64,000 nt of DNA from NCBI GenBank assembly GCA_003599855.1, contig QZKG01000022.1:29927-93926 (forward strand), read 5' to 3'. The position numbers and the translations under genes are program-made. The notes beneath the pieces were generated by a model. It made no database searches. It was given only the letters and a program-made list of their open reading frames with translations, and was not told the origin of the DNA. The stretch is from Gaiellales bacterium. GTDB taxonomy: Bacteria; Actinomycetota; Thermoleophilia; BMS3ABIN01. Numbering within the stretch: position 1 is the stretch's first letter; each line of letters begins with the position of its first letter. Below are positions 1-44,126 of this stretch, one piece after another.

Positions 1-3000
1 CGCGGGTCGACCTCGAGGGCGCTGTCGAAGCAGCGTATCGCCTCATCGTAACGCTTCAGGTGATGCAGGGCGATGCCCTTTCCGGTCCAGGAATCGGCGT
101 CCATGGCATCGATCTCCAGGGCGCGGTCGTAGCTGTCCAGGGCTTCGTCGAAGCGGCCCAGGCGGGCCAGGCTCTGGGCCTTGCCATGCCAGGAATCAGC
201 GCGGCCCGGATCCGATTCGAGCGCCTCGGCATAGCTGGCAACCGCCTCAGCGTAACGCTCCAGGCGCGCCAGGCCCTCGCCGCGGCCATGCCAGGCGTCC
301 ACATAGAGCGGCGCGATCTCCAGGGCCTCATCGAAGGAATCCACCGCCTGGGCGGGCTCTCCCAGGTTGAGCAGGCACTCACCCCTGCCGTACCAGGCAG
401 CCGCATCGCCCATGTCTGTGGCAAGCGCCTTGTCGTAGCTCTTGAGGGCCTTCTCGCACTGCCCCAGCTGCCTGAGGCTCTCGGCGCGGCTCACCAGGTA
501 GCGAGCGTCGGCCGGGGCGAGCTTGAGCGCCCGGTTGAAACTCTGTACTGCCTGCGAATGCCTGCCGGTACGCGCCTGGCACTCACCCTTGCTGAACCAG
601 GCCGGGGCGTTCCTGCCCTCCAGCTTCAGGGAGCGTTCATAGGCCGTGATCGCCGCCTGGAGCTGGTCCAGCCGCTTGAGGCTCTCGGCCTTGCCGAACC
701 AGGTCGCGGCGTCGTGGTGCTTGCGCCGGATAGCCTTCTCGAAGGAATCGACTGCCTCCTGGTCGCGGCCGAGGCCCTGGAGCGACATGGCCTGGCCGTA
801 CCAGATCCGCCCGTCCCTGGCGTCCAGCTCCAGGGCGGCGGCATAGGCCCTGATGGAATCGTCGAGCCGGCCCAGGGCGCGCAGGCTCTCGGCCTTGCCC
901 AGCCAGACGCGGTAGTCGCCCGCCCCGGCGCCGGCGGCTTTGTCATAGCAGGTGATGGCCTCGTCATGCCGCTCGAGACCGCGCAGGCTCTCGGCCTTGC
1001 CGAACCAGGCGTCAGCCCGGGTGGCGTCGACCTCGAGCGCCTTGTCCAGCCAGACGATGGCATCCTCCAGGCGACCGGTGGCGCGGAAGCTGTCACCCTT
1101 GCCGAACAGCGCGCCGACGTGACCGGGGTCGCCCTTGAGCACAGCGTCAAAATCGTTGATGGCGTCGCGATGGTCCTCCAGCAGGCGATGGCACTCACCC
1201 CGTCCGAAGAATGAGGGCAGGTGCTTCTCCATGAGCTGGAGCGACTCGCCGTAGCAGTCGATCGCCCGTTGCAGCCGCCCGAGCGCCCTCAGGCTCTCGG
1301 CCTTGCCGAACCAGGCGCCGCCGCTCTGGGTGTTGAGCTTGAGACACTTTTCGTATCCCCTGACCGCTTTTTCATGCTCGCCGAGGGCTCTAATGCTCTC
1401 AGCGCGGCCGAACTGGGCCTGCTCGTTCCGGGCATCGAGCCTGATGGCGCGGTCATAACTTTTCACCGCCGGGCGCTCACGTCCCAGCAGGCGCTGGCTC
1501 TCCGCCTTGCCGAGCCAGGCCGACGCGTCGCGCGGGGACAGCTTGAGGCAACGCTCGTAAGCGCTTACTGCCTGCCCATGGCTGCCCAGGTTCCTCAGGC
1601 TCTCCGCCTTGCCGAACCAGGCAGGAGCGGATCCGGGCTCAACCTTGAGCGAAGCGTCGAAGCTTGCGATAGCCTCGTCATGGCGACCCAGAGTCTGCAG
1701 GCTCATGGCCTTGCCGAACCAGGCGGTGGCTTCTTCCGGGTCGATCTTGAGGCACTCGTCGTAATCCGGGACCGCCTCCTCGTCGCGCCCCAGCCCGCGC
1801 AGGCTCTCCGCGCGGCCAAGCCAGGCGCCGGCGAAACCGGGGTCGACCGCCAGCGAACTGTCATAGCTGGCGATGGCGTCCTCCAGCCTGCCGAGGTTCC
1901 TCAGGCTCTCCGCCTTGCCGAACCAGGTCCCGGCGTCGCCGGGCTCCAGCTTCAGAGCCTCTTCAAAACTGGCCAGGGCCTCCTCATCGCGGCCCAGTTG
2001 CTGCTGGCAGACACCGCGCCCGAACCAGGCCCCTGCCAGGGAAGCGTCCTGTCTGAGAGCGCCGTCGAAATTGTCTGTCGCCTCCTCGTACCGGCCGAGG
2101 CTCTGCAGGCAAAGCGCCTTGCCGTACCATGAAGCCCCATGGCTGTTGTCGAGATCCAGCGACCGGTCATAACTATCAAGGGCGCGTGCGTCCCGGCCGA
2201 GGGCCCGCTGGCTCTCGGCCTTGCCGAACCAGGCCAGGGCGTCGCCGGCTTCCAGGGAAAGCGCCTTGCCGTAGCTCTTGAGCGAATCCTTCAGGCGGCC
2301 GAGGGCTCGCTGGCTCTCGGCCTTGCCGAACCACGACCTTTCGTCGCGGGGGTCCAGCTTCAGGGCGCGCTCGAAGGACATCAGGGCCGCTTCCTGCCTG
2401 TCCAGCCGGCGCAGGCACTCGCCCTTGCTATGCCATGCCGGCGCGAACCTGTTGTCTGCCTCGAGGGCGTCATCGAAAGACTCAAGGGCCTCCTCATGAC
2501 GTCCGAGCGCGCGCAGGCTCTCACCCCTGCCGTACCAGGACAGCGCCGCCGCCGGGTCGATCTCGAGTGCCCTGTCAAATGACTGGATCGCTTTTTCGAA
2601 GTCTCCCAGCGAGCGCTGGCAATCGCCCTTGCCATGCCAGGATGCGGCGTCGCCGGGGTCGGACTTTATCGCCTGACCGTAAGCGGCGATGGCGTCCTTG
2701 AACATCCCGAGGGCCCGCTGGCTCTCGGCCTTGCCGAACCAGGCGTCGCGGTTAGCGGGTTCCAGCTCCGTCGCCTTGCCGTAGACCACATCCGCCTCTT
2801 CAAGACGGCCCAGGGATGAAAGGCTGCCAGCACGGCTGAGCCAGGCGGCGGTGAAATCAGGTTTCAGGTCGATGGCCCGCTCGAAGCTGGCGAGCGCCTC
2901 TTCGCCGCGGTCGAGCTGCTGCATGCTCAGGCCCCTGCCGTACCACGCCGGCTCCGCCGAGCCATCCAGCTCCAGGGCGCGGTCGTAGGAGTCCGCCGCG

Positions 3001-6000
3001 CTCTCGTTTTTACCCATCAGCCTGAGGCCCTCGGCGCGGCCATACCAGGACGCGTAGCTGCCGGTTTCGACCGCCAGGCTGTGGTCGAAGCTCTCGACCG
3101 CCCGGGGATAGCGCCCGAGCCGCAGCTCGCTCTCGCCCTTGCCGTACCAGGCGAGGGCATCGTCTGGGACCAGGCGTAAAGCTTTCTCGTAGCTGCGAAC
3201 GGCGGTCTCGTCATCCCCCATGCTGCGCAAGCTCTCGGCGCGGCTGTACCAGGCGCGGTCGTCATTACGGTCGATGTCGAGGGCCTTGTCGAGGAAGCGC
3301 ACCGCTTCGACGAAACGCCCCATGCTCCTCATGGCCTCCGCCTTGCCGAACCAGGACTGCTCGTGCCTGGGCTCCAGCTTGATGGCCCGGTCATAACTCT
3401 TTATCGCGTCGGCGAAGCGCCCCAGCCCGCGGAGGCTCTCGGCCCTGCTGAACCAGGCGGGGGCGCTGCCGCTGTCGATCCGGAGCGCCTCGTCGAAGCT
3501 GGAGACGGCGTCTTCGGGACGACTTAAAAGCTCCAGGCAAAGCCCGCGGCTGTACCAGGCGGCGCCGTCTTCCGCGTCGATAGCGAGGGCCCGGTCGAAA
3601 CTGGCGATAGCCTCTTCGAGACGCCCGCCCTCAACCAGGGTCAGACCCCTGTTATACCAGGCCTCTCCATCGTCCGGGTTCAGCTCCAGCGCCCTGTCGA
3701 AGCAGGCGATGGCCTCGTCGAACCTGCCGGCGGCCGCCTCCACCGGTTCTGGCTCTTCCTCTTCGGCAGCCGCTTCCACCGGTTCCGGTTCTTCCTCTTC
3801 GGGGGGCGCCTCTTCAGCCGCAGGCTCCTCGACTTCTTCCAATACTTCTTCTTCTGAGACCGGCATTTCCTCGTAAGCCGCAGGCTCCTCAACCGCCGCT
3901 TCTTCAAGTACTTCTGCTGCAGCTGGCTCTTCTTCCAGCGCCTCTTCGACCGCAAACTCTTCATCAGCAGGCGCCTCTTCAGCGGTGAACTCCTCTTCGG
4001 AGGGCGCCTCTTCAGCCGCAGGCTCCTCCCCTGCTTCTTCCAGGACTCCCTCCCCTGCCATCAACTCTTCTTCGGGGGCCTCGGCTTCGGCCAGCTCCTC
4101 TTCGACTTCCCGCAGCAGCGAATCCAGGGCGCTGGCCGCGGCCGGCTCCTCGACCTCCCCGGGAGCGCCAGCGGCTTCCTCTTCCCCGGCCGGCTCCCCG
4201 GCCTCGGCAGCCTCTTCATCGTGCACCGACGGCATCGCCCATTCCACTGCCTCGTCCTCTTCCTCGGACTGGTACATGAGCTCCTCGTCCACCGGCTCGA
4301 AGGACTGGGAGGACACTACCGCGTCCAGCGACGGCGGGGCCGCCTCCTCCTCCTCGGCTGGCTCTCCTTCCCCGGAGTCCGCTTCCCCAGCGACCTCTTC
4401 GACGACAGGCTCCGCGGCCTCGACGGCCTCCTCCTCCTCGGCCGGCTCTTCCTCTCCGACTTCCGGCTCTTCCTCCTCGGCCTCCATCCAGGCGGGGCGT
4501 TCCCCCCCGGCGTCCAAAGCGGCAAAGAACCGCTCGGCTTCGGTCATCTCCTCCTCAGGCCTGGTCTCCGGCACTGCTTCAGGTTCCAGGGCTTCCTCTT
4601 CAGCGGGCTCCTCCCCGGCGGGCTCTTCCGCGGCTGTTTCAGCCTCGGCCCCGGCTGCCACCTCTTCAGCTTCCACGATCTCTTCGATTTCCACCACTTC
4701 TTCAGCTTCAGCTACCTCGGCAGCCTCCTCGATTCCGGCTTCCAGCGTCTCCGCCGCAAGCTCTTCATCCGCCTCCCATGCCAAAGCTTCTTCTTCTGCC
4801 TCTGCTTCCGGCATCATCTCTTCCACGGGCGTCCCCTCGACAGGTTCTTCCGCCCCGGTCCCGGCTTCTTCGAACTCCTCAGCCGCCGGGGCCTCCTCCG
4901 GCGCCTCTTCCACTACGGCCTCATCCGCCGCCGCGGGCGCCGCCAGTCCCAGCAGTTCACTCCTGAGCAGCTCGGCGCTCTCATCTCCAGGACTGAGCTC
5001 CAATACCTTGTCGAGGGCATCCAGGGCCTCGCTGTCACGCCCGATCTCCTTGAGGCACATGCTCTTGCCCAGCCAGAAATCCACATCCCAGCGGTCCAGA
5101 ACCACCGCCTTGTCGAAGGCGGCCAGGGCGTCATTGTACCGGGACTTCTCCAGCAGGATGGCGGCCTTCTCCCCCCAGCCACGGGCCAGCCCTGGCTCCA
5201 GCTCGATCGCTTTCTCCAGCGATTCCAGCGCGGCGTCGAGGCGACCCATGTCCCGTTGTATCACGCCCAGCTGCGCCCAGGCCTGCGCGCTGGAAGGATC
5301 CAGGCCCACCGCCGTCTCCAGCGATTCCCGGGCTTCGTCCAGGCGGTCCAGGTAGTGGAGGCTGATGCCCCGCTGCAGCGGGATCGTCGCGTCGCGGTGA
5401 TCGAGTTCGAAGGCCTTGTCCAGCGCCTCGACCGCCTCCTCGTAGCGCCCGAGGTTATGCAGACTCAGGCCCTTGTAGTACCAGGCAGCCGGGTCCCAGA
5501 GCTCGACCTGCTCGATCCGCTCGAACATCTCGACAGCCTCTTCTAAACGCCCGGCGGAATTGTAGATGACGCCCTTGTTGAACAGCGCCGCCGTTTCCCC
5601 CGGGTTCGCCTCGATGGCGTGGTCGTAACTCTTCAGGGCGTCGTCGATCCTGTCCAGGGTGTGGAGACTGACGCCGCGGTTGAACCAGGCGGCGGAGTCC
5701 TCGGGTTCGTACTCGACGGCCTTGTCATAGCACTTGATGGCCTCCTCGTGGCGCTCCAGCGCCTGGAGGCTGGTCCCCTTGTTGAACCAGGCGGACGCGT
5801 CGCGCGAGTCCAGCTCCAGCACCGCGTCGAAGGCGGCGATGGCGTCTTCATAACGCCCCTGCTTGTGCAGGCTCACGCCCTTGCGGTACCAGGTCTCGGA
5901 GTTCCACGGGTCAATCCTGAGTGATTCGTCATATGCCTGGACCGCCTCGTCATCACGGTCCAGCCCGGCGAGCGCGCTGCCCATGAGGAAATCGATCTCC

Positions 6001-6238: not shown

Positions 6239-6734
6239 TCTATGACTCCTGGTCGTGAGGTAACATAAACATGCCGTCTTCTGCCCCGCCGGACACCCGG
6301 CTGACACTGCCCTGACATCGGGGGGCGCCGGGCATTGCAGTTAAGTGATTGAAAAGGGGTAGGCCTTGGTATCGAGAGCTTTCCTTTACCGGTGCAGTTG
6401 TCGTTTCAGCTGCGATGCGGGCTAACCCCTTTCCGCGGCCGGCATGGCCGCGCCAGTGAAACCAGCCGGCGCTCACCAGCCGACCGTTAAGGAATGATTC
6501 TATACCAAACAATCAGCTTTTTCAGCGCATCCGTTTATTTTTTTTACGTATTTTTCCGACCCCGCAGCCGCGCTCCCGGCTCGCCCGCGAGCTGCCCCGG
6601 GGCTTGCCGAAAGTACCTCGATTCGCCCCGGCAAAGGCAACCCGACATGTAGTTTTGCGGAGAACGGGTATGAACAGGATACGGGAACGATAACTGCGCG
6701 CCGTCAACCGGCGGGCATGGGAAAGGAGACAGAT

Positions 6735-7232
6735 ATGGAGCAAGTCCAAAGGGCGACCTTCGGTGCCGGATGCTTCTGGGGTGTTGAAGAGACTTTCCGC
6801 AACGTGCCTGGAGTCGTTTCGACGGTGGTGGGCTACGCCGGAGGGCACACAGAGGACCCGACCTACGAGGATGTCTGCCACGGCGGGACCGGCCACGCAG
6901 AGGTGATCCAGGTGGAATACGACCCCGGCCAGGTGTCTTACGAGAAGCTGCTGGACACTTTCTGGAGCTCACACGACCCGACTCAAAGGAACCGGCAGGG
7001 ACCAGACGTCGGCAGCCAGTACCGTTCGGTTATCTTCTACCATACGCCGGAGCAGGAAGATGCGGCGCGCAGGTCCATGGAGCTGCTGACTGACAGCGGG
7101 ACCCTGCCCGGTCCGCTGGCCACCGAACTTCTGCCGGCGCCGGAGTTCTACCGCGCAGAAGAGTACCATCAGCAGTATTTCAGCAAGCGGGGATTGCGCG
7201 GCAGCTGTTCCAGCAGGGGGTCCTGTTCCTGA
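6735..7232 (+). CDS. msrA: Peptide methionine sulfoxide reductase MsrA
   Basis: GCFWGVE active-site motif, typical MsrA length. GGAGA SD lies 8 nt before ATG 6735. The ORF-track start 6717 is an upstream alternative. Confidence 0.9.
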
Positions 7233-17845: not shown

Positions 17846-18865
17846 ATGGCCCGTAAAGCAATAGCCCTCCTGTCGGGCGGCCTCGACAGTCGCCTGGCGG
17901 TAAAGATGATGCTCGACCAGGGCATCGAGCTCGAGGCAATCAACTTCGTCACGGTCTTCTGCACCTGCACCGCCAAGGGGAGCTGCAAGTCCGAGGCCCG
18001 CGCTGCCGCCGAGGAGTTCGGCATCCCGCTCAAGGTCCTGAACGCCACCGACGAGATCCTGGCGGCCATCAGGGATCCCCGTCACGGCTTCGGCCGGGGC
18101 ATCAATCCCTGCCTCGACTGCCGCATCAGCATGTTCAGACGGGCTGCCCGTCATATGCGGGAACAGGGAGCCGACTTCCTGGTGACCGGTGAGGTCTGGG
18201 GCGAGCGGCCCATGTCCCAGCGCCCCGAGGCGATGCGGATCATCGAAGAGGAGTCCGGCCTCAAGGACCTGATCGTGCGGCCGCTCTCGGCGCACCTGTT
18301 CGAGCCGAGCCTGCCCGAGCGCAGAGGCTGGGTCGACCGCGAGAAGCTGATGGCTATCCGGGGCCGGTCGCGCAAGCCGCAGATGCAGCTGGCAGCGGAG
18401 ATCGGCGTGAACGACTACCCCTGCCCCGCGGGGGGCTGCCTGCTGTGCGAGAAACAGTTCGCCGCGCGCCTGAAGCGGCTGCTGGCAGAGGACCCCGACC
18501 CGGCGGTCGCCGACATCCGCGCCCTGAGGCTGGGCCGAATTTTCTACACCAGCGACGGCGGGCGGGTCATCATCCCCCGCAACGAGGAAGAGACGAAGAA
18601 GCTAACCGCCCAGGCGCGCGAGGGCGACATCATGATGAGCGCTGTTGACCACATGGGCCCGACCGCGGTCGTCAAAAGCAACGGCGGCTCGGGTACGACC
18701 CTGGAAGAGGCTGCGGCCCTCACCGCCCGCTACGGGCAGGGGCGCGACGAGGATACAGTGGCTGTAGGCTACTGGCTCCAGGGCGACGAGGAACAGGAGC
18801 GGACGATCATCACGGCCTCTCCGGCGGCGGGGCACGAGCTGGCCGAGCGCCTGGAGAGGCTGTGA
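17846..18865 (+). CDS. PP-loop superfamily ATP pyrophosphatase, ThiI/TtuA-like putative (tRNA) sulfurtransferase
   Basis: SGGLDSRLA PP-loop motif 9 aa after ATG 17846. AGGAG SD lies 6 nt upstream. Cys clusters CTCTAKGSC and CPAGGCLLC. Track start 17792 is GTG. Confidence 0.65.
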   Translation: MARKAIALLSGGLDSRLAVKMMLDQGIELEAINFVTVFCTCTAKGSCKSEARAAAEEFGIPLKVLNATDEILAAIRDPRHGFGRGINPCLDCRISMFRRAARHMREQGADFLVTGEVWGERPMSQRPEAMRIIEEESGLKDLIVRPLSAHLFEPSLPERRGWVDREKLMAIRGRSRKPQMQLAAEIGVNDYPCPAGGCLLCEKQFAARLKRLLAEDPDPAVADIRALRLGRIFYTSDGGRVIIPRNEEETKKLTAQAREGDIMMSAVDHMGPTAVVKSNGGSGTTLEEAAALTARYGQGRDEDTVAVGYWLQGDEEQERTIITASPAAGHELAERLERL

Positions 18866-19026
18866 GCCTCCCCTGGAAAACCCGGGCGCAGAACGGTTTA
18901 TCCGAATCCTTTTACGGGCATCAGTGTCTAATGTAATGTCTGTGGCTATCCGAAATCAGATGTATTATTATAATCCAAGCACAATTGTAAGCTTTATTTC
19001 TTCGCTCCAAGGGAGGTTCGGCAATC

Positions 19027-19374
19027 GTGATTGTTCCTGAGACAAAGACCGTCGCTGTGTTCGGCTCGCGCTACCTCGATTCCTGTTCGGGTGGCTGAGG
19101 CCCAAGCTGGTCTCTGGAAGAGATCACTGCCGCTATCAACCGCCAGCTCGACGAGGACTTCGGCGGGACCGCGAAATTGCGCTACGTCGACTTCGACTCA
19201 GAGGACCTGGCCGATTACCCCGATGTCTACCAGAAGGTCGTCGACCGCGAGGTCGAGCCGGGACTGATCATCATCGAGGATACCATCCGTCCCATCTGGG
19301 ATGTCCCCTATAACCGGCTGGTGGACGAGTTCGAACGGCTGGGAGCCACCAGGCTGGAGCGCAAGGCTTCCTGA
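19027..19374 (+). CDS. ArsD/YuzD-like thioredoxin-fold protein with in-frame UGA at 19096..19098 (selenocysteine candidate), 115 codons
   Basis: AAGGGAGG SD lies 10 nt before GTG 19027. Reading gives VAVFGSRYLDSCSGG-[TGA]-GPSWSLEEITAAINRQL...GLIIIEDTIRPIWDVPYNRLVDEFERLG. The segment after the TGA has no start or SD of its own. Recalled similarity to ArsD (CCSTGVCG...GLPLLLLDGETVMAGRYP). Confidence 0.55.
19108..19126 (+). promoter_or_regulatory. Candidate bacterial SECIS-like hairpin. It starts 10 nt after the UGA; 8-bp stem, GGA apical loop.
   Basis: UGGUCUCU-GGA-AGAGAUCA. Loop G residues lie 17 nt downstream of the UGA. Confidence 0.35.
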
Positions 19375-19403
19375 TCCAGCAGGAAACGCACCACGATGAA
19401 CAG

Positions 19404-19433
19404 GCGGCGCCTCCGGGCGCCGCTTCTTGTTGC
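19404..19433 (+). terminator. Rho-independent terminator after the ArsD-like gene
   Basis: GGCGGCGCC-UCCG-GGCGCCGC followed by UUCUUGUUG. Confidence 0.7.
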
Positions 19434-19615
19434 CTCCACGGCTCTGCCCAGATGCCGGCTACGGTCCTGGCGCGGAGCGCGACAACTGGTTATAAATGAT
19501 CAGACTTGCCTATACCGCTGTTCCGGCGCAACCAATATAATGGTCCCGCTTACGCGGCGGCGGCAGTAGCGCACCACGACAGCCCCGCGCCAACCCCCGA
19601 AGAAGGAAGGTCCGT

Positions 19616-23714: not shown

Positions 23715-23768
23715 GGGGGTATTGCGTAGCGAAGGCTCGCAGTGTTGCCTGAGCCAGCAATGCTCCCG
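23715..23768 (+). repeat. Intergenic structured repeat, module 3 (GGGGGUAUUGCGUAGCGAAGGCUCGCAGUGUUGCCUGAGCCAGCAAUGCUCCC), copy 1
   Basis: Near-identical reverse-complement copy at 36382..36440; partial variant at 33996..34026. Predicted 10-bp closing stem plus two internal hairpins. Confidence 0.6.
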
Positions 23769-25499
23769 GCGCGCAGTATTTCTGCTATCCTTGGCTCTGT
23801 GAACGACCAGACCACATCCCCGTCCGGGCGCAGCGACTTCATCCGTGAGATCGTCGCCGCCGACCTGCGCGAAGGCCGCCACGAGGCCGTCGTCACCCGC
23901 TTCCCGCCGGAGCCCAACGGCTACCTCCACATCGGCCACGCCAAGTCCATCTGCCTCAATTTCGGCATCGCCCGGGAGTTCGACGGCCGCTGCCACCTGC
24001 GCTTCGACGACACCAACCCGGTGAAAGAGGAGCAGGAGTACATCGACGCCATCGAGGCCGACGTCCGCTGGCTGGGGTTCGACTGGGGCGAACACCTGTA
24101 CTTCGCCTCCGACTACTTCGAGCAGCTCTACGATTGGGCCTGCCACCTGGTTAAGAACGGCAAGGCCTACGTGGACGACCTCAGCGCCGACGAGATCCGC
24201 GAGCACCGGGGCACGCTCACCGAGCCGGGCCGTGAGAGCCCCTGGCGGGACCGCCCGGCGGAGGAGAGCCTCGACCTGCTGGAGCGCATGCGCGCCGGCG
24301 AGTTCCCCGATGGTTCGCGCGTGCTCAGGGCGCGCATCGACATGAGCTCGGGGAACATCAACCTGCGCGACCCCGTGCTCTACCGCATCCTCCACTCGGC
24401 GCACCCGCGTACCGGCGATGCCTGGTGCATCTACCCGACTTACGATTTCGCCCACGGGCAATCCGACGCCATCGAGGGCATCACCCATTCTATCTGCACC
24501 CTGGAGTTCCAGGACCACCGGCCGCTCTACGACTGGCTGATCGAGAACCTGCCGGTGCCCTCGCGGCCGCGCCAGTACGAGTTCGCGCGGCTCAACCTCA
24601 CCCATACCGTCCTCTCCAAGCGCACGCTTATGCGCCTGGTGAACGACGGCCACGTGCGCGGCTGGGACGACCCCAGGATGCCGACGCTCACGGGCCTCAG
24701 GCGGCGCGGGTTCCCCGCCGAGGGGATCCGCGACTTCGCCAACGCGGTGGGCGTCGCCAAAAACGAGGGCGTGGTGGAAGTCGGGGTGCTGGAGCATGCC
24801 GTGCGGGACGTGCTCAACCGCCAGGCGCTCAGGCGCTTCGCTGTCCTCAATCCCCTGAAGGTGGTCATCGAGAACTACCCCGAAGGCCAGGTCGAGGAGA
24901 TGGAAGCGGTCAACAACCCGGAGGACCCCTCCGCCGGCACCCGCCCCGTGCCCTTCACGCGGGAGCTCTGGATCGAGCGGGACGACTTCATGGAGGAGCC
25001 GCCGCGCAAGTTCTTCCGCCTGGCCCCCGGCCGCGAGGTGCGGCTCAGGTATGCTTACTTCATCACTTGCCGGGAGGTCGTGAAGGACGGCGAGGGCGAA
25101 ATCGTCGAGCTTAAGTGCACCTACGACCCGGAGACCCGCGGCGGGGACGCCCCCGATGGGCGCCGCGTCAAGGCCACCCTCCACTGGCTCTCGACGGCCC
25201 ACGCGCTAAACGCGGAGGTCCGGCTCTACGACCACCTCTTCCGTGAGCCTTATCCCGGCTCGGACGGCCGCGATGCGTTCGAGGACCTGAACCCCGAATC
25301 CGAGACCGTGCTGCATGACTGCTTCATCGAGCCCGCTCTGGCCGAGCTGCCCACCGGCGAGGCCGTGCAGTTCGAACGGCTGGGCTACTTCTGCCCCGAT
25401 CCGGATTCAGCGCCGGACGCGCCCGTGTTCAACCGGACGCTCACGCTGAGGGACACCTGGGCGAAGCTGCAGGCGCAGGGAAAGCAGGACAAGGCCTGA
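23760..25499 (+). CDS. glnS: Glutaminyl-tRNA synthetase
   Basis: HIGH motif [23 protein letters not shown]-type motif, [12 protein letters not shown]-terminus like E. coli GlnRS. Starts 23742/23760 lie inside an intergenic repeat. GTG 23799 is a plausible true start. Confidence 0.9.
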
Positions 25500-25573: not shown

Positions 25574-25648
25574 TGGCGAGTGGCCTAATGGTAAGGCACC
25601 TGACTCTGGATCAGGGGATTGAAGGTTCGAGTCCTTCCTCGCCAGCCA
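25574..25648 (+). tRNA. tRNA-Gln (anticodon CUG), CCA encoded
   Basis: UGGCGAG acceptor; D-arm GCC-UAAUGGUAA-GGC; anticodon stem CCUGA/UCAGG with loop CUCUGGA; T-arm GAAGG-UUCGAGU-CCUUC; CUCGCCA-G-CCA. Matches the bacterial tRNA-Gln pattern (GGUAAGGCACC). Confidence 0.95.
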
Positions 25649-25690: not shown

Positions 25691-26770
25691 TCATCCTGAG
25701 TCCGAACACCCCTTATTGTCATCCTCGATCAGGTTGAGGATAAGGCCGATCATCAGCTCCTTCTGCCTGGCTTCGCTCTCAGCGACCAGCAGCGCCAGGG
25801 CTACCATGGCATTATCCGCCAGGCGCGGATTGCCATCCGGCCGCAGCAGCAAGCTGTTCCGCCGCAGGTACTCCAAAAAAAGCAGCGTACCGATGCGCTT
25901 GTTGCCGTCGACAAAAGGATGATCCTTGATAACGAGGTAAAGCAGATTTGCTGCTCGCGCCTGCACCGTGGGATAGAGCAACTCGCCACCGGAAGTCTGC
26001 TCGATGGCACCCAGAATAGCACTGAGATGCTCACCGCGCTCCTGACCGAATATGCCCGTTGCCTCACCTCGCGAAGAAAGCGCAGCCCTGAGTTATTCAA
26101 TGGCAACCCGCGCTTCGATTAACGTAAGCTCCGCTGTTGGCTGAACCGGCCGTGCCGGCGCTTCGGCCAACCGGTCCTCGTCATATTGGAGTAGCAGTTT
26201 CCAGGCACGCGTATATTGCTCTACGATTTCCAGAATCGCTCGCCCTTCATCCGCAACCAGTTCATTGCGGGAAAGCGTTCGGGAGAGCAGCGCTACAGCC
26301 TGCTCTATTTCGCTGAACCCCTTTGCACTGATCCGCTTCTCGTTGATCGTGAAACCGCGCAGCAGATGATCGCGCAGGGTCCTGGTCGCCCAGATACGGA
26401 ACTGGGTGCCGCGCTTGGAATTTACACGATAACCAACAGAGAGAATGGCATCGAGGTTGAAGTGTTCGATCTCACGTACCACCTGGCGCTCACCCTCGAT
26501 TTGAACTGTTGCATTTTTTGCAACGGTTGCCTCTCGCTCCAACTCTCCCGTTCGAAAAATAGTGCCTAGGTGTCGGGATATAACAGATTTATCCCGCTCA
26601 AAAAGGTCTGATATTTGCGTCAGGGTCAGCCAGACCGTCTCCTCTTCGAGGCGAACATCAAGCTCCACCTGACCATCTGGTGATTCATAAAGGATGATTT
26701 CACCCTCGGAACCGTTCAAACCGGACCTCCGCGAAATAGCTTCCACAAGGGGTGGCAATTCCCGACGCAA
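25691..26770 (-). pseudogene. RhuM-family / Fic-Doc family protein interrupted by one in-frame TAA (26093..26095)
   Basis: N-terminal RhuM-like domain (GEIILYESPDGQVELDVRLEEETVWLTLTQ...). After the TAA the same frame continues into LRAALSSRGE...IKDHPFVDGNKRIGTLL (Fic/Doc motif HxFxDGNKR). The two track ORFs 26093..26770 and 25691..25981 are one frame. Confidence 0.7.
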
Positions 26771-26869
26771 TCAATGCTCACTGACTTTAATCGGCATTAG
26801 CGGTTTTCTCTCACGGCGAGATTATACCTGCCGGACGGTGTCATTATTTTTGGAAGCTCTTATTACCTT

Positions 26870-27125
26870 CAGGGGAATTAGGGACAGCATACCTATTTAT
26901 CCCAATGTCGGATCACGCTTCGCTGATCCGACCTACAGCTGTGCTGTCCTGCATACAAATAAGGGCAAAATAAGGGGACAAAATAAGGGGACACCATACT
27001 TATTTATCCAATCGTTTCAATGAATCAGTATGGTGTCCCCTTGTTTCGATCCATACCTATTTATCCAATCGTTTCAATGAATTAGGTAAGGTATCCCCTT
27101 ATTTCCGTGTCCCCTTATTTCCCGC
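26870..27125. repeat. Palindrome-rich MITE/PATE-like repeat cluster inserted into the IS3 orfB
   Basis: Hairpin GTCGGATCA-N7-CTGATCCGAC. 13-bp inverted repeat GGGGACACCATAC...GTATGGTGTCCCC flanking 35 nt. Direct repeats CATACYTATTTATCCAATCGTTTCAATGAAT (x2 plus a partial). ATAAGGGGACA x2 and its inverse x2. Confidence 0.55.
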
Positions 27126-27722
27126 TGCTCGTCGGTGGTGCGCCGGTAGCCGTAGCCTGTGTGTTTCACGGCGATCCGCTCCAAGGGCCCCCTCAAGGCC
27201 CGGCGCTTCTCCTCGTAGTCACATGCGTGTCTTAGGTGGTAATAGAAGGTGGAGCGCGGCAAATCAAACACCGAGAGCGCGGCCGGCAGACCGAAGTCGG
27301 CCTGAGTCTCCTTGACCTTGGCGACCTTCTCGCTGGTGCTCATGCGCCCCGGCCCAAGAAGTTTTTTAAAAGGACGATCTCGACTTCCTTTTTGCCCAGC
27401 AGCCGTTCCATCTCTGCGAGCTTTTCTCCACTTCGTTTTGCGAGCTTTCATTTTCGAAGATCTGGGGGCCTTGCTCCAGAAAGCGTTTCTTCCAGAGCCC
27501 CACCGAGTTGGGATGAACTCCGTACGCCTTGGCGATCTGCGCCGGTGTTTTCTCGCCGGAGATAAGTTCCAGTACTACCTGGAATTTGAGCCTGGGGGAA
27601 ATCCTCCTGCCACTTTTTGCCATAGAATTTGACCTCCTTCGCTGGCGAGAATCGTATCATTCCCGCCGGTCGTCCGGAGGTCAAATCTCACAATTTGGAA
27701 GTGTCCAAGATTTGGGGGTCAT
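27125..27722 (-). mobile_element. IS3-family insertion sequence remnant (left end and orfA intact, orfB truncated after ~70 codons)
   Basis: OrfA 27366..27623 (HTH transposase MAKSGRRISPRLKFQVVLELISGEKTPAQIAKAYGVHPNSVGLWKKRFLEQG). A6C slippery site at ~27361-27371 with OrfB in the -1 frame (...ALSVFDLPRSTFYYHLRHA...). Putative IRL beginning TGACCCCCAAATC at 27722. Confidence 0.75.
27366..27623 (-). CDS. IS3-family transposase OrfA
   Basis: See mobile element. Confidence 0.8.
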   Translation of the reverse strand: MAKSGRRISPRLKFQVVLELISGEKTPAQIAKAYGVHPNSVGLWKKRFLEQGPQIFENESSQNEVEKSSQRWNGCWAKRKSRSSF

Positions 27723-27732
27723 ATCCGATCGC

Positions 27733-28053
27733 TCAGGTGTTTAGCTGGGTTGCTGCAAGAAAACCCATCACAATAATAAATATCCAAACTCCCATGATAA
27801 TGAGCGGTAACATGATGACTATATGTAATGCATTATTATAACGATCACAATAAATGTGCTTGTTCAGCAAGAGCCAGTATGGAATAGCTTGAAAAGCGTA
27901 GGTAAATACTATTGCTGCCAGTAACAATCCCGGTGTGAATGTATCCCTTGTGATGATTGTAACTACAAGACTCCAGATGAGGACATTCCCCAGCCATATC
28001 ATCAGACTGATGAAGAAGCGTTTTCGAAGAGGTTTGTTTATCTGTCCCATCAT
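27733..28053 (-). CDS. Small AT-rich integral membrane protein (3 TM), hypothetical; co-oriented 37 nt downstream of the large secreted protein gene
   Basis: Hydrophobic 106-aa ORF. Local GC is far below the genome average. Confidence 0.45.
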   Translation of the reverse strand: MMGQINKPLRKRFFISLMIWLGNVLIWSLVVTIITRDTFTPGLLLAAIVFTYAFQAIPYWLLLNKHIYCDRYNNALHIVIMLPLIIMGVWIFIIVMGFLAATQLNT

Positions 28054-28089
28054 GCTGTCTCCCTCACTCGGCTTTCGCTTCTCGGTTCT

Positions 28090-31000
28090 CTATGGCAGCT
28101 GTCCCGGGAACCAGTACTCTCTTTGAGCATCATCCTTGCAGCTTGCGTACGATATCGTCGTGAAGTTACTGATGTTTGAAGGTACATAGTATTTGAGCAT
28201 GATCGTCTCGCTTGCGCCCGGCATGAGGTTGCCTGTTGTTAGCGGCAGAGGCGTCACCACGTTTACGGACGAAGGCGTGCAGAACGATGCGTGGACTGTG
28301 GGTTCGAATGCCTCTCCGGTGCCGGTATTCTTCATCGAGTAGTCGATGGAAAGTCTCCGGTTATAGTAGTCGTCCCAGCTGGCCCAGTAGACTCGCTTTT
28401 TTGTCCAGTTGAGAGAGGGAATGGTGGTAGCCACCTCAGCTACGTTGGATAGTTCCGATCGACGCAGGACTTCATCCTCGGCTTTCAGGGCAAAGTAATA
28501 CATCGTTCCCGCCTTGAGGCCGGTTATTGTTACTGTCTCGGGGGAGCCTGCCGGCTGGGGCAGCGGGATGATCTCGACAAGCTCGGCTTCCTTCCAGTTC
28601 ATCTCTGTGATGGGAGTTTCAGAATACCGTACGTCATAGTACTGGGCGCTGCCGGCGTTGCCATCGTCTCCTGGAGCCGTGAATGATATCGTGACGGTAT
28701 CGGATGAGGCACTGACGAGTGACAGGTCGCTGACCGCCGCCGGCGGATTCAGGTCGATATCATGATGGGCGATGCTGTCTGGTGGGCGTAGCTCATCGAC
28801 AACGCCGTCGCCCTCGCTGTCGACCTGAAGTTGATAGTCAGCGTTCCGCGCCAGTTCCAGATGGACTCTCGTCGATGCGTTCACCGGTACAGCCACATAG
28901 TTGACGGTATCCGCCGAGTTTGTGGTTTTGTCCGGTGAGCCGACCGTAAAATCGAAGGTGCCTTCGCCGGTGCCTTCAAGTTCGAAACGATAACCGGCAG
29001 AAGCGTCGCCGCCGTGGATGATGATGGTCTTGCGGTGCAGTTCGGGTATCTCAATATATTCAGCGCCTGGGATCTGCTCGTCGAGGCTCCCGGCTTCATT
29101 TATCCCCACGTGGTTGCCGGCTGAATCGTAGAGGTGGATATCCACCGGAGAAGCGACGCTGCCGTAAGTATCGCTTGCGGACACTCCGGCACACTGCGGG
29201 TCGCCATTGTTACAAAGCCCGTCGGACCAGGAGAAGGGATCGTCCCACCTGCCGCTGTGCTCTGGTGCGGCTGCGGGGCCTTGGGGAGCATCCAGCCAAG
29301 GTACACCCACTATCTCTCCCCACGCACCCTGATACGCAAGCCACCCATAAGGTCCGCCAACCAGGCTGCCGACACGCGCTGAGCCCACATCGGGAAGGAC
29401 TTCGACCTGTGGTTCAAGAGGCCCATTAGCAGTTTTTTCAGTCGTGTCGTTTGGGTCAAAAGGAAAATCATCAACTGGAACCGTGTGCACACCAGCAATG
29501 AAATATGTCGCATGTGATCCTTTTGCGATATATACGATAGGATGATCGCCCCGTTTTTCAACATATGACCAATCACCTTTAATGCCGCCAAGGTGCTGGC
29601 TAAGAGAGACGCTCTCTGGCGACAATTCACCCAGACCTTCGAGGTCAACCTGGACCATCTCCCAGTCACCTTCGTGAAAGTTGCCGAAATTAGTGAAGAA
29701 CCCGAAAGTATTGAAGTAGTAGAGCATCCAATACTGAAGGGCAACCCTGTCGCCCGTCGAGTTGCGTGTGACTCTGGCGTAATAGAGCTCGGGATAGTTA
29801 TATTGAGACAGCAAATTATTGTATGGATTTACGAAATGATACTTCAAAGTCCACTCTGTCCATCGAGCATCTATCCATGAAGACCTGACATTCCCCGGCA
29901 AATCGATGTACTTCCCTCCATCTGGATTACCTGGTTCATCACTCGCACCGAAATAGTTGCCGAGTGATCCAAGAGATAATTCGGGCCACACCAACAGGGT
30001 ATTATCAGGCCAGTTGTCTATGCGCTCCATCAGTTTCGCTCCCTCCCCATCGACGAACATGCCTACCGGCCGCGGCTGAAAGTACTCCTCGTGGTGCAGA
30101 TACAAGTAGGGCGCATACCTCTCCGCCAGTTCCTGCGCCCTGTCACCAAGGCGGTTGTGATAGAGGTTGCGCACCCCGTCCCGGTCGTCGCTCCAGACTA
30201 TGTGCGTCCCGGAGACGACGGGATTGATGGCCAGCACCGGGCTCCTTGACACCTGCTGGGTCTCACCCGTAGCGAGGTCGTGGAGGTAGACCTGTGGTGG
30301 GGCGCCGCGGGGGTTGGCTGCATCCCAGACGACCTTGTCGTGCGAGTCGGTGTCGATGTCGAGGCTCTCTCCTTCCATGCTGCTGATCAGCTGAGGTTGT
30401 GCCGCAGGTTCGTTCAGGTCGAGGACGTAGACCCCCACGTCGGGGTCGCCCAGCGAGCCTTTTCGGAAGGCGAGGGTATCGCCGGCCAGGGAGTAGCTGT
30501 CAGCAGCACCGACGACGCGTTCGGCGCTGCCGTCCAGTTTTCTGGCTTTCAGTTCCGTCTGGCCGGAAGACGAGTCCTTCCAGGTGACCCAGGAGCCGGA
30601 GATGTCCGGTTCGTACTGCTTGTCGGGCAGAGCCGCTACCGGCTGGGCGCCGGCTCCGGGGTTGTCCAGATCATAGAGGTAGATGTCGGGGTTGGTGGAT
30701 GAGTACCGCTCGTTCTGGAAGGCTATCTTGTGGCCGCTTAAGGCGATCTCCCAGGGGTTGAAGCCGCTCAAGGGTATGGCATTGTCCAGGCAACCGGTCT
30801 CAGGGCAGCCGTTACCGAGGAATGTGTAGTGGATCTGTCTGGTCGTGCCGCTCTGTTCGAGCCAGACGACGAGGTCGCCGTCGATCAGGGGGCTCGACTG
30901 GGTGATATTGCTGGCCAACTAGGGAACCGGCAGGTAAGTCGGATTGGCCGGATCGGAGATATCCCTGAAGACGATGCGGTAACGGGCGCTGCCATTATAG

Positions 31001-40118: not shown

Positions 40119-40595
40119 TTACTTCCAGTTCTTGATCAGGCTCGCCATCTCGATGGCGCCACTGGCAGCCTGCCAGCCCTTGTTGCCAGCCTTGGTGCCG
40201 GCGCGCTCCACCGCCTGCTCGATAGTATCGGTGGTCAGGACGCCCATAGCCACCGGGACTTTCGTATCCATGGATATCTTGGCGATACCCTTGGATACCT
40301 CGTTGGCGACATAGTCGAAATGGGGCGTGCCGCCGCGGATCACCGCGCCGAGGCAGATGACGGCGTCGTACTTGCCGCTCTCCGCCATCTTGGCCGCCAC
40401 CAGTGGTATCTCGAAGGCGCCCGGGACCCAGGCGACCTCGATGGCTCCCTTGCCGGCGTTATGCCGGATGATGCAATCGACAGCGCCGTCCAGTAGGCGC
40501 AATGAGATGAACTCGTTGAAACGGGCGACGACGATGCCGAACTTGAGACCCTTCGCGTCCAGCATTCCCTCGTAGCTCTTGTAGTTCTCCGCCAT
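40119..40595 (-). CDS. ribH: 6,7-dimethyl-8-ribityllumazine synthase
   Basis: Typical RibH sequence ([11 protein letters not shown]...GAFEIP...[10 protein letters not shown]). Confidence 0.95.
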
Positions 40596-40636: not shown

Positions 40637-41905
40637 CTAGCTGCCCTGTTCTTCCTTGTCGAACCTGAGGTCCTGGTGGTGCAGGATATGGCCGAGCTTG
40701 GCCTTTTTCGCGCTCAGGTAAGCGACGTTCTCGTCCTGGGGGTCCATCTCGATGGGAACCCGCTCCACGATCTTGAGCCCGTAGCCTTCGAGGCCCTTGA
40801 TCTTCTTGGGGTTGTTGGTCATCTGGCGGATGGTGGTCAGGCCCAGGTCGACCAGTATCTGCGCGCCGATGCCGTAGTCGCGCAGATCAGCCGGGAAGCC
40901 GAGTTCCTCGTTGGCCTGCACCGTGTCCATGCCCTGATCCTGCAGGTCATAGGCCTTGAGCTTGTTGATGATGCCGATGCCCCGGCCCTCCTGGGAGAGG
41001 TAGAGCAGCACTCCCTTGCCTTCTTCTTCAATCATCCGCAGGGCGTGGTAGAGCTGCTCGCCGCAGTCGCAGCGCATGGAGTGGAAGACGTCTCCGGTGA
41101 GGCACTCGGAGTGCACCCGCACCAGCACGTCCTCGGCGCCATCGACATCGCCCTTGACCAGGGCTACATGCTGCTCGCCGTCCAGCTTGCTCTCGAAGCC
41201 CACCACCCGGAACTCACCGAACTTGGTGGGGAGCTTGGCCTCGGCCACGCGCTCCACCAGTTTCTCGGTCTTGCGCCGGTACTTGATGAGGTCCGCTACG
41301 GTGACCATCTTCAGGTCGTGTCTCTTGCAGTAAGGGATCAGGTCGGGGACCCTGGCCATGGTGCCGTCGTCGTTCATGATCTCACAGATGACGCCGGCGG
41401 GCTCCAGCCCGGCCAGGCGGGCCAGGTCGACGCCGGCCTCGGTCTGGCCGGTGCGCTCGAGCACACCGCCCGGCTTGGCCCTCAGCGGGAAGATATGGCC
41501 CGGCTGCACGACGGCCTCGGGGCCGGACTCGGGGTTGATGGCCACCTGGATCGTATGGGCGCGGTCGGCGGCGGAGATGCCGGTGGTCACGCCGTGGCGC
41601 GCCTCTATCGACACCGTGAAAGCCGTGCTGTAAGTCGCTTCGTTCTTCTGGACCATCTGCGGCAGCGCGAGCTTCTCGCAGATCTCCGGGGTCATGGCCA
41701 GACAGATGAGCCCGCGGCCGTGAGTGGCCATGAAGTTGATAGCCTCCGGCGTGGCGAACTGGGCTGCGAGGGTGAGGTCGCCCTCGTTCTCGCGGTCCTC
41801 GTCGTCGCAGACTACGACCATCCTGCCGGCGCGGATATCCTCGATCGCTTCCTCGATGGTGCTGAATGGTGATTCTTCTGTGGTTTTCTGTTCTTGTTCT
41901 GCCAT
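40637..41905 (-). CDS. ribBA: Bifunctional 3,4-dihydroxy-2-butanone-4-phosphate synthase / GTP cyclohydrolase II
   Basis: N-terminal DHBP synthase ([11 protein letters not shown]) and C-terminal GCHII (CDCGEQL...GRGIG). Confidence 0.95.
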
Positions 41906-41970: not shown

Positions 41971-42624
41971 CTAGAGGAAACCGCCCTCGGCCAGTTTTTC
42001 CAGCGTCAGTCCCCCCTCCCCCTGGCCTCCGGGAAGGCCGCCTTTCATTATCTTCTCGACGTACTTGCCTATCACGTCAGCTTCGAGGTTGACCTCGTAG
42101 CCGACACCGTTGTGACCCAGGGTAGTGACCTTCACCGTGTGGGGGATGAGCGAGACGCTGAAACTGTCCTTCTGCAGGCGCGCCACCGTCAGGCTGATGC
42201 CGTCGACGCCCACCGACCCCTGGGCCAGCAGGTAGCGGCGGATCTCCTCCGGCGCCTGGATGGTGTAGATGATGGCATTGCCCTCGGGCTTGATGGACAC
42301 GATCTTGCCGGTGGCGTCCACGTGGCCGAGCATCAGGTGGCCGCCCAGCCGCGCGTTGAGCGTCAGGGCCCGTTCGAGGTTCACCAGGCTGCCGCGCTTG
42401 AGGTTGCCCAGGTTGGTCTTCTTGAGCGTCTCCGGCATCACGTCGGCGGAAAAGGTGCCGTCGCCGAAGTCGCGCGCCGTGAGACAGGTGCCGTTGACAG
42501 CGATGGAGTCCCCCAGCTGCGTGTTCTCGAGGACCTTGTCAGCCTCGATGGTGACGATGCCGCTCTCGGAGCCCATTTCGATGCTCAGCAGCTTGCCCAT
42601 CTCCTCTACTATCCCGGTGAACAT
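41971..42624 (-). CDS. ribE: Riboflavin synthase alpha subunit
   Basis: MFTGIVEE...GDSIAVNGTCLT duplicated lumazine-binding repeats. Confidence 0.9.
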   Translation of the reverse strand: MFTGIVEEMGKLLSIEMGSESGIVTIEADKVLENTQLGDSIAVNGTCLTARDFGDGTFSADVMPETLKKTNLGNLKRGSLVNLERALTLNARLGGHLMLGHVDATGKIVSIKPEGNAIIYTIQAPEEIRRYLLAQGSVGVDGISLTVARLQKDSFSVSLIPHTVKVTTLGHNGVGYEVNLEADVIGKYVEKIMKGGLPGGQGEGGLTLEKLAEGGFL

Positions 42625-43808: not shown

Positions 43809-43899
43809 GTCCGGCGTCACTGTCTCCTGTCTTGGTCCCGGGCTTCCCTCTGTCCCACGAAAAAACCCCGGGCAGCAATGAACCCAGGGCAAGTCAGCT

Positions 43900-44016
<117 letters not shown>

Positions 44017-44126
44017 ATTGCGTATGTAACGCTATTTGATTTTCCGTTAAAGATGATAGCAGACAAAAAAACCGGTTTCCAGTTGCGGGGGAACCGGCGG
44101 GTTGATGGGGTTCTGCGCCGGGCCGT

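Follow-up and report, generated by a model that had tools for sequence, protein, structure and literature searches.

A candidate thioredoxin-fold selenoprotein family related to YuzD/DUF1462, encoded across an in-frame UGA in a Gaiellales genome

Introduction

Does the in-frame UGA of a small actinobacterial gene end translation, or does it encode selenocysteine (Sec)? The question is raised by positions 19027-19374 of a 64,000-nucleotide stretch of contig QZKG01000022.1 (assembly GCA_003599855.1, Gaiellales bacterium; positions 29,927 to 93,926 of the forward strand), which is referred to below as the window. The initial annotation, made from the sequence alone, took this locus for a selenoprotein candidate, and the conserved UGA, the Cys-containing homologs and a covarying hairpin downstream of the UGA support that view. 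On comparative evidence, the locus is very probably one genuine Sec-encoding gene with a 115-residue product, which gene callers have almost certainly cut short at the UGA. The sequence comparisons support the gene structure, the conservation of the UGA, the pairing of Sec with Cys, the constraint on the RNA, the fold and the family relationship, and each of these is considered in turn.

Results

A single reading frame across the UGA

The locus contains the following features.

19009-19016, + strand: Shine-Dalgarno sequence AAGGGAGG, with a 10-nt spacer to GTG 19027 (read directly)
19027-19374, + strand: predicted selenoprotein coding sequence, 115 codons (GTG start, Sec as codon 24) and a TGA stop (by translation)
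19084-19086, + strand: TGT codon of Cys20, the partner of Sec in the motif C-x3-U-G-P
19096-19098, + strand: in-frame UGA, predicted Sec codon (residue 24)
19108-19126, + strand: putative bacterial Sec insertion sequence (SECIS)-type hairpin, 8-bp stem, GGA apical loop at 19116-19118 (by folding and comparison)
19372-19374, + strand: true stop codon, TGA
19403-19431, + strand: terminator-like GC-rich stem-loop, followed by UUCUUGUU (direct fold)

Twenty-three sense codons (VIVPETKTVAVFGSRYLDSCSGG) precede the TGA at 19096-19098, and 91 further open codons follow it up to the TGA at 19372-19374, just as first described: 23 codons, a TGA, and a frame that then stays open. The Shine-Dalgarno sequence and its 10-nt spacer before GTG 19027 were also found at the coordinates originally given. 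The arrangement is shared by all 22 close homologs, in which GGAGG or GAGGG lies 6-10 nt 5' of a GTG, TTG or ATG start, about 20-24 codons before the TGA. The region 19395-19445 folds at -26.3 kcal/mol (z -3.3), and none of 200 shuffles was equally stable. Folding supports the clean terminator that had been proposed in the form of a stable GC stem-loop, while the promoter-like region proposed along with it found no support: a consensus scan detected no sigma-70-like promoter on the + strand, and did not flag the terminator either.

The pattern of substitutions indicates purifying selection, in a single frame, on the codons before and after the TGA. Across the 14 codons before the TGA, 22 close homologs display 1603 synonymous against 421 non-synonymous pairwise differences. 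Upstream of the TGA, two to five different codons are in use for each of the invariant residues (Gly, Ser, Arg, Ser, Cys, Gly); Cys20, which is invariant across family members, is encoded by both TGT and TGC. Codons downstream of the TGA likewise vary synonymously at conserved residues.

Conservation of the UGA and its exchange with Cys

Relatives were sought among 5.8 billion proteins, in an exhaustive hidden Markov model (HMM) search of 1.84 billion representatives, and in a metagenome scan with a profile of the close subfamily. The first of these searches returned five relatives only, one of full length (P0003, 112 aa) and the rest fragments of 65-90 aa. In the underlying DNA, each of the fragment-type relatives is preceded in frame by a TGA and the conserved N-terminal segment. 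The codon at this column is TGA in 28 distinct genes, which correspond to 32 locus sites, and TGT in one context. A joint recurrence of TGA, frame and hairpin on this scale goes well beyond what chance would give. The carriers of the TGA comprise seven GTDB species-representative metagenome-assembled genomes (MAGs) labelled Thermoleophilia or Actinomycetes, twelve further metagenome contigs, and a more divergent branch recovered by the exhaustive HMM search.

P0003 has a Cys aligned to the TGA of the window (DSCSGGCGRRWSLEE against DSCSGG*GPSWSLEE), encoded by TGT (locus L005a). A spore-forming Firmicute contributes two full-length relatives of the CxxC type, P0028 and P0030, which display C-Y-G-C at the column. 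The profiles of the whole family and of the divergent branch both place the Sec column on the C-A-S-C motif of the structure 1XG8, at its second Cys. The UGA had initially been placed where a Cys is expected, and the homologs agree: relatives without the UGA all have Cys in the column, which is the signature of Sec/Cys exchange.

Both forms are present on a single contig, Logan SRR20681263_1904 (locus L005). The Cys form P0003 lies at 575-913, with the TGT codon and a degraded hairpin. About 270 nt downstream, at ~1110-1257 (the contig end), lies a Sec paralog (L005b; …FGSRYLDSCASGG*GPSWSLEEIT…) with the motif C-x4-U and an intact hairpin. Judged by their sequences, P0003 and its Sec-form neighbour are a tandem Cys/Sec paralog pair of one organism.

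A constrained hairpin downstream of the UGA

The consensus bacterial SECIS (bSECIS) model quoted in PMC13188914 has a loop of 3-9 nt with G at its first two positions, an upper stem of 4-16 bp, a UGA-to-loop distance of 16-37 nt and a minimum free energy of -7.5 kcal/mol or lower. The hairpin of the window agrees with this model in every respect: it has a 3-nt loop beginning with GG, a stem of 8 bp and a UGA-to-loop spacing of 17 nt, and folds at -7.6 kcal/mol (core) or -8.8 kcal/mol (extended). Folding and the model both confirm the earlier description of an 8-bp, bSECIS-compatible hairpin with a GGA loop at 19108-19126. Energies within the limit of the model were found in 25 of the 28 TGA contexts.

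The hairpin codons TCT CTG GAA GAG ATC (S-L-E-E-I) are invariant at the nucleotide level among 23 distinct close homologs, with 0/115 synonymous variants against 129/375 at codons with conserved amino acids outside the hairpin (Fisher p ~2e-18, uncorrected for phylogeny). Paired cells reach 96.9% at the hairpin and 36-59% in slid-partner controls; three of the eight stem pairs display compensatory change, none of 500 shuffles attains the observed covariation score, and RNAalifold recovers the identical stem. In the divergent lineages, the closing pair U-A is replaced by A-U or C-G, a G-C by A-U, and the outermost U-A by C-G, with the GG of the loop remaining invariant. The Cys paralog P0003 spells WSLEE as TGG TCC CTC GAA GAG, which leaves two contiguous pairs by the loop and a loop reading CGA. 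Orthologs thus provide the covariation that was looked for, in the form of compensatory changes and of constraint at synonymous sites, and on this evidence the RNA structure of the hairpin is under selection.

If the UGA encodes Sec, translation would begin at GTG 19027 and the ribosome would not stop at UGA 19096-19098; the hairpin at 19108-19126, acting as a bacterial SECIS element, would recruit SelB-GTP-Sec-tRNA(Sec). Sec would be inserted as residue 24, and translation would run on to the TGA stop at 19372. We infer the involvement of SelB and tRNA-Sec and the actual incorporation of selenium, as we do the redox chemistry and the partner of the protein considered below.

A remote branch of the YuzD/DUF1462 lineage

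The product had been described as an ArsD/YuzD-like protein with a thioredoxin fold. Profile comparisons uphold a remote homology with YuzD/DUF1462, including a match to 1XG8, while the relation to ArsD stays below the thresholds in the same kind of comparison and does not support family membership (see below). The close subfamily has no match to PF07315 at E<=10 and does not reach the Pfam gathering threshold of 25 bits. Members of the divergent Sec branch exceed that score, with 37.4 bits in locus L014, 31.7 in L015 and 29.1 in L016. Aligned by hhalign, the subfamily of the window and the divergent branch match over 107 columns with 99.9% probability (E 5e-31), and by this comparison the two are unambiguously one family.

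The profile of the family (A6) matches 1XG8 with E 3.6e-4, query positions 9-102 falling on positions 10-104 of the chain, and the profile of the divergent branch with E 4.7e-8. This entry, the S. aureus protein SA0798, is the only solved DUF1462 structure (PF07315; SCOP c.47.1.17). An AlphaFold2 model of P0003, which is 56% identical to the window protein, has a mean predicted local distance difference test (pLDDT) score of 86.8 and a predicted TM-score (pTM) of 0.76. It displays a thioredoxin-like beta-alpha-beta-alpha-beta-beta-alpha topology, with the Cys/Sec motif in a low-confidence loop between beta1 and alpha1, which we read as a flexible segment. A Foldseek search with this model returned thioredoxin-fold proteins only, none at E<=1e-3, and the best TM-score belonged to 1XG8. 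The fold closest to that of the family is accordingly the one of 1XG8, while the C-x-x-C motif of DUF1462 was found in P0028 and P0030 only.

The family is fairly described as a remote offshoot of the YuzD/DUF1462 lineage that contains Sec and is related to ArsD only at the level of the fold; DUF1462 and ArsD have both been placed in the thioredoxin-like clan (PMC3091736). The family is small and mostly actinobacterial. Ten positions are invariant across both of its branches (in window numbering G13, C20, G23, U24, S29, E32, L41, Y53, D55 and P65). The close clade has the motif C-x3-U-G-P, whereas L005b and the divergent branch have C-x4-U-G-P.

The known YuzD proteins are Cys proteins of Bacillales. 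They share with the new family a single-domain thioredoxin-like fold of ~110 residues, a redox motif in the beta1-alpha1 position and a downstream signature of Y-[VI]-D, an acidic stretch, P-[VIL]-[VIL] and G; function is uncharacterised in both. YuzD has C-x-x-C, whereas in the new family Sec replaces the second Cys, the first Cys is shifted by 1-2 residues, and the Gly-rich loop is longer. The new clade is also mainly actinobacterial, found in MAGs labelled Thermoleophilia or Actinomycetes, and almost entirely Sec-containing.

Other thioredoxin-fold selenoproteins (SelW-like proteins, thioredoxin, glutaredoxin, and thioredoxin-like Sec.1/Sec.2 of PF13192; Table 1 of PMC13188914) follow the same CxxU/UxxC logic. 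Like the new family, they are small redox proteins with Sec in place of one active-site Cys and a bSECIS just 3' of the UGA, have Cys homologs, and are misannotated as truncated open reading frames (ORFs). Members of the new family, in contrast, do not match PF00085, PF00462, PF10262 or PF13192 even at E<=10; their Cys-Sec spacing of 3-4 residues is unusual, and their motif, as modelled, would lie in a low-confidence loop about six residues before helix alpha1 and not at the helix N-cap.

Points against a selenoprotein

Several observations weigh against the reading of the locus as a selenoprotein gene. The energy of the hairpin in the window passes the limit of -7.5 kcal/mol narrowly, and the hairpins of L013 and L032 (-5.0) and of L014 (-6.3) fail it. 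The covariation derives from only four divergent lineages, and its shuffle controls are uncorrected for phylogeny. The window protein, with U replaced by C, has no Pfam or NCBIfam match even at E<=10, and its link to DUF1462, as drawn from the profiles, is transitive. The structural model is that of the Cys homolog P0003 and not of the window protein, and its active-site loop is of low confidence.

The genes selA, selB and selD and a tRNA-Sec were not found within the 64-kb window or the fetched loci. ARAGORN detected no tRNA-Sec in the window or in eight related loci; in a scan of the window at Rfam gathering level the SECIS and tRNA-Sec models remained unmatched, the matches being an FMN riboswitch and a tRNA-Gln only; and the large ORFs of the window, read by eye for selA, selB and selD, proved to be housekeeping genes only. 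A bSECIS-style hairpin scan of ~218 kb from these lineages also failed to find a second selenoprotein gene, recovering this family and junk-frame matches only.

Rubrobacter xylanophilus, a deep-branching actinobacterium, has 5 selenoproteins (PMC1794560). By analogy, the trait in that species makes Sec use plausible for the organism of the window and goes no further.

Genomic neighbours and the likely function

Genes next to the selenoprotein gene differ between lineages. In locus L016 (395-2353; also L017 and L018) a compact same-strand cluster consists of a CsoR/RcnR-family repressor, OsmC, an FmdB-like Zn_ribbon_8 protein, the selenoprotein and Lgt. In L015 (531-1138) the selenoprotein gene and a gene for a CsoR-family repressor overlap at the 3' end of the former. 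In L014 (466-1107) and L032 (565-1029) a Fer4_5/4Fe-4S dicluster membrane protein (NapH-like, YYCGWACP) begins no more than ~12 nt downstream, a pairing that recurs in two independent contigs of the low-GC branch. FmdB/Zn-ribbon is itself a listed selenoprotein family (PMC13188914).

A 51-aa gene call in L016 (1314-1469) corresponds to the N-terminal part of the selenoprotein and ends at the Sec TGA.

Cys20 and Sec24 (C-S-G-G-U-G-P) would sit on a glycine-rich, flexible beta1-alpha1 loop that corresponds to the CxxC site of YuzD and the thioredoxins. They are interpreted as a redox couple because Sec occupies a motif-Cys position of a thioredoxin fold, there are Cys forms with CxxC, and the operon partners in other lineages are redox proteins. 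The protein would probably cycle between a selenolate/thiol state and a Cys-Sec selenenylsulfide, in the role of a thiol/selenol oxidoreductase from which a partner protein receives reducing equivalents. Oxidoreductase activity is the function that we favour, by a little, from the sequence comparisons. The C-terminal Gly-Cys-Sec-Gly arm of mammalian thioredoxin reductase offers an analogy only: it too presents a Gly-flanked Sec on a mobile segment, forms a selenenylsulfide with a nearby Cys and shuttles electrons to a partner. There is no homology between the two, and the reductase has adjacent Cys and Sec at the C-terminus of a large flavoenzyme, as against C-x3-U in an N-terminal loop.

A serious alternative, which we consider possible though unlikely, accepts the selenoprotein and assigns it an ArsD-like role as a chaperone or sensor of soft metals or metalloids, with Cys20 and Sec24 binding an ion such as As(III), Cu(I) or Hg(II) and transferring it to a partner. 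The ligand cysteines of ArsD (Cys12/13/18) lie on a loop that we take to be equivalent to the motif loop of the family, and the reading of that loop in the model as flexible, of low confidence and not at a helix N-cap, would suit such a role. ArsD (3KGK, 3KTB) also resembles the family in having its functional cysteines on the loop after beta1 and a similar hydrophobic '[LV]P[LV][LV]..G' strand, and two independent lineages have a CsoR/RcnR-family 'metal-sensitive repressor' in the operon. In direct comparison, the best distant member of the family scores 24.3 bits against Pfam ArsD (PF06953, threshold 27) and 22.5 against NCBIfam ArsD (NF033727, threshold 90). Every ArsD score is thus below threshold, and these come from one divergent member only; the window protein has no ArsD match in the Pfam and NCBIfam scans, and ArsD is not among the matches of a PDB sequence search with the family profiles.

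Against real ArsD, hhalign gives a probability of 1% for the whole family and 27% (E 7e-4) for the divergent branch. In the latter, weak alignment the C-x4-U-G of the distant branch superimposes on C13-x4-C18-G of ArsD, with the Cys on C13 and Sec on C18, and the equivalent of C12 is His, Ser or Asp. Two of the three ligand positions of the As(III) site (Cys12, Cys13, Cys18) are therefore occupied, in an alignment of low probability; the family differs from ArsD in having neither the Cys12-Cys13 pair nor an ars operon context. In none of the loci examined does the gene have arsA, arsB or another metal-efflux gene as a neighbour, and the OsmC and 4Fe-4S neighbours suggest redox chemistry instead. 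CsoR-family regulators, for their part, respond also to persulfide and aldehyde stress. ArsD is not known to be a selenoprotein. Membership in the ArsD family is not supported, given the sub-threshold scores, the incomplete three-Cys site and the lack of ars operon context.

The gene upstream of the selenoprotein gene in the window is the following.

17846-18865, + strand: ThiI/MnmA-like PP-loop ATPase with a C-terminal NFACT-R_2 RNA-binding domain (start uncertain; the ORF opens at GTG 17792)

Its Pfam matches are NFACT-R_2 (62.8 bits), ThiI (40.8) and tRNA_Me_trans (32.3). The PP-loop gene is directly upstream of the selenoprotein gene in L001-L003, L005-L010 and L012, and always so in the Thermoleophilia-type actinobacterial clade. 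The wider neighbourhood, from trpB to a gene for a DHH-CBS-PolyA polymerase, is syntenic in related genomes, with an M50 peptidase and a lipoprotein also nearby. A functional link between the PP-loop protein and the selenoprotein is only a possibility, because the conservation of the wider gene order may reflect shared ancestry and an AT-rich spacer of 160 nt separates the two genes.

The upstream protein itself contains the Cys clusters CTCTAKGSC, NPCLDC and CPAGGCLLC, and has no NCBIfam equivalog match above the cutoff. From its sequence, it looks like an uncharacterised enzyme of the RNA-thiolation type.

A more specific and rather improbable proposal is that the Sec loop serves one particular partner as its own selenol-based carrier or reductant and is not a generic disulfide reductase. 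The partner in the clade of the window might then be the PP-loop/NFACT-R_2 enzyme, with the selenoprotein resolving a persulfide or disulfide, or delivering sulfur or selenium; in other lineages, at the same low level of expectation, partners might be OsmC or the NapH-like Fe-S proteins under CsoR-type control. If this were true, the family would be a new, almost obligately Sec-dependent branch of YuzD, and would supply the first function for the YuzD family.

Alternatives to Sec insertion

The remaining alternatives deny that the UGA encodes Sec. Read-through by a near-cognate or suppressor tRNA inserting Trp, Cys, Gly or Arg, with the hairpin merely stimulating the process, would fit the failure to find Sec machinery in the window and the fetched loci, and two database entries have W at the codon (P0025, L013 94-432; P0027, L032 226-552). 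The DNA of both entries reads TGA, and the two loci do not yield the deposited products under table 11; evidently the gene caller applied an alternative genetic code to these short contigs, and the W is the translation of TGA under that code. TGA is, moreover, the normal stop of the window gene and of its orthologs in L001, L002, L009, L012, L015 and L016, and UGA is therefore not globally reassigned in these organisms. With UGA serving as a stop in these very genes, Cys in the column of every non-UGA relative, and a hairpin that fits the SelB-type bSECIS model down to the invariant GG of the loop and the spacing, insertion of another amino acid is very unlikely.

A division of the locus into two elements, namely a leader ORF of 23 codons that stops at TGA 19098 and is accompanied by a regulatory hairpin, and a 65-aa protein beginning at TTG 19177, is still harder to sustain. 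It corresponds to the public gene calls, which start downstream (P0002; P0001/P0004-P0010, 62-90 aa): the in-frame TTG 19177 is the start in GenBank and gives the 65-aa 'hypothetical protein C4534_02905' (P0002), identical to the ORF of the window. The initial annotation was mistaken in stating that no start codon follows the UGA, as this TTG is present and used by the NCBI gene call. On the comparative evidence TTG 19177 is nonetheless not the true start of the gene, because the 26 codons between the TGA and the TTG are conserved as protein-coding sequence, with synonymous variation; in the model they would encode helix alpha1. Strand beta1 and the conserved Cys come from the first 23 codons, whose product aligns with the N-terminal end of 1XG8. 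The starts chosen by different callers differ and are non-homologous, and the Cys-form homologs P0003 and P0028 are called at full length.

An assembly or sequencing error, or a pseudogene, with TGC or TGT misread as or mutated to TGA, might be imagined for a codon one base away from Cys in a metagenome-assembled genome, and is effectively refuted by the recurrence of the TGA, in intact frames, across samples and assemblers that are independent of each other (28 distinct genes), and by one conserved frame under purifying selection on both sides of it.

Other features of the window

The window further contains a riboflavin operon on the minus strand.

42675-43928, - strand: ribD-like gene
41971-42624, - strand: ribE-like gene
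40637-41905, - strand: ribBA-like gene
40119-40595, - strand: ribH-like gene

A flavin mononucleotide (FMN) riboswitch (Rfam RF00050, 113.7 bits) lies upstream of it at 43901-44020 (- strand). A glutaminyl-tRNA synthetase-like gene (23742-25499, + strand) is followed after 75 nt by tRNA-Gln(CTG) at 25574-25648 (+ strand), the sole tRNA of the window. A gene for methionine sulfoxide reductase A (MsrA; 6717-7232, + strand) is of the Cys form, with GCFWG at the active site; other bacteria have MsrA as a selenoprotein.

Positions 1-5900 have no convincing gene model. Long ORFs on the + strand are low-complexity and quasi-repetitive there, with antisense-like codon GC; units resembling 'QALGLAEPG' recur in 60-2582, 3985-5355 is rich in Ser and Ala, and there are several short tandem repeats with periods of 15-36. 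The region may belong to a large repetitive minus-strand gene that runs off the window. In 26093-31150, which includes a 942-aa ORF at 28090-30918 (- strand), third-position GC is 0.45-0.66, against 0.8-0.95 in the surrounding genes; this segment may have been acquired horizontally. An apparent interruption of LeuC (63035-63949) was rejected, as the gene runs off the edge of the window.

Discussion

On this evidence, the locus represents a new family within a well-known class, the bacterial thioredoxin-fold selenoproteins decoded through a canonical bSECIS; the mechanism is not new. A compilation of 119 prokaryotic selenoprotein families and subfamilies with Pfam/NCBIfam identifiers and Sec motifs (PMC13188914, May 2026) contains neither PF07315 or PF06953 nor a C-x3/4-U motif. 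The family goes unmentioned in a 2022 review, in the deep-Sep paper and in the main text of the BSepDB paper, and may have been listed earlier in other tables. NCBIfam release 20.0, which includes recent selenoprotein models, recognises no family member, and the literature on selenoproteins together with ArsD, and on yuzD in subtilis, yielded nothing relevant.

The family would add a Sec-containing relative of YuzD/DUF1462 with an unusual C-x3/4-U-G-P loop motif to the known selenoproteins, and would add MAGs labelled Gaiellales and Thermoleophilia to those with a documented use of Sec. It also exposes a systematic misannotation, in that nearly all public records found are fragments of 36-90 residues or have the UGA translated as Trp. 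The nucleotide-invariant SECIS of the close homologs, together with the compensatory variants, would make a clean test case for models of the bSECIS and of its recognition by SelB. Sec in place of the second motif Cys is usually taken as the sign of a catalytic redox residue. For DUF1462/YuzD, which has had a structure for 20 years but no known function, the new family would in this way provide a first clue to function.

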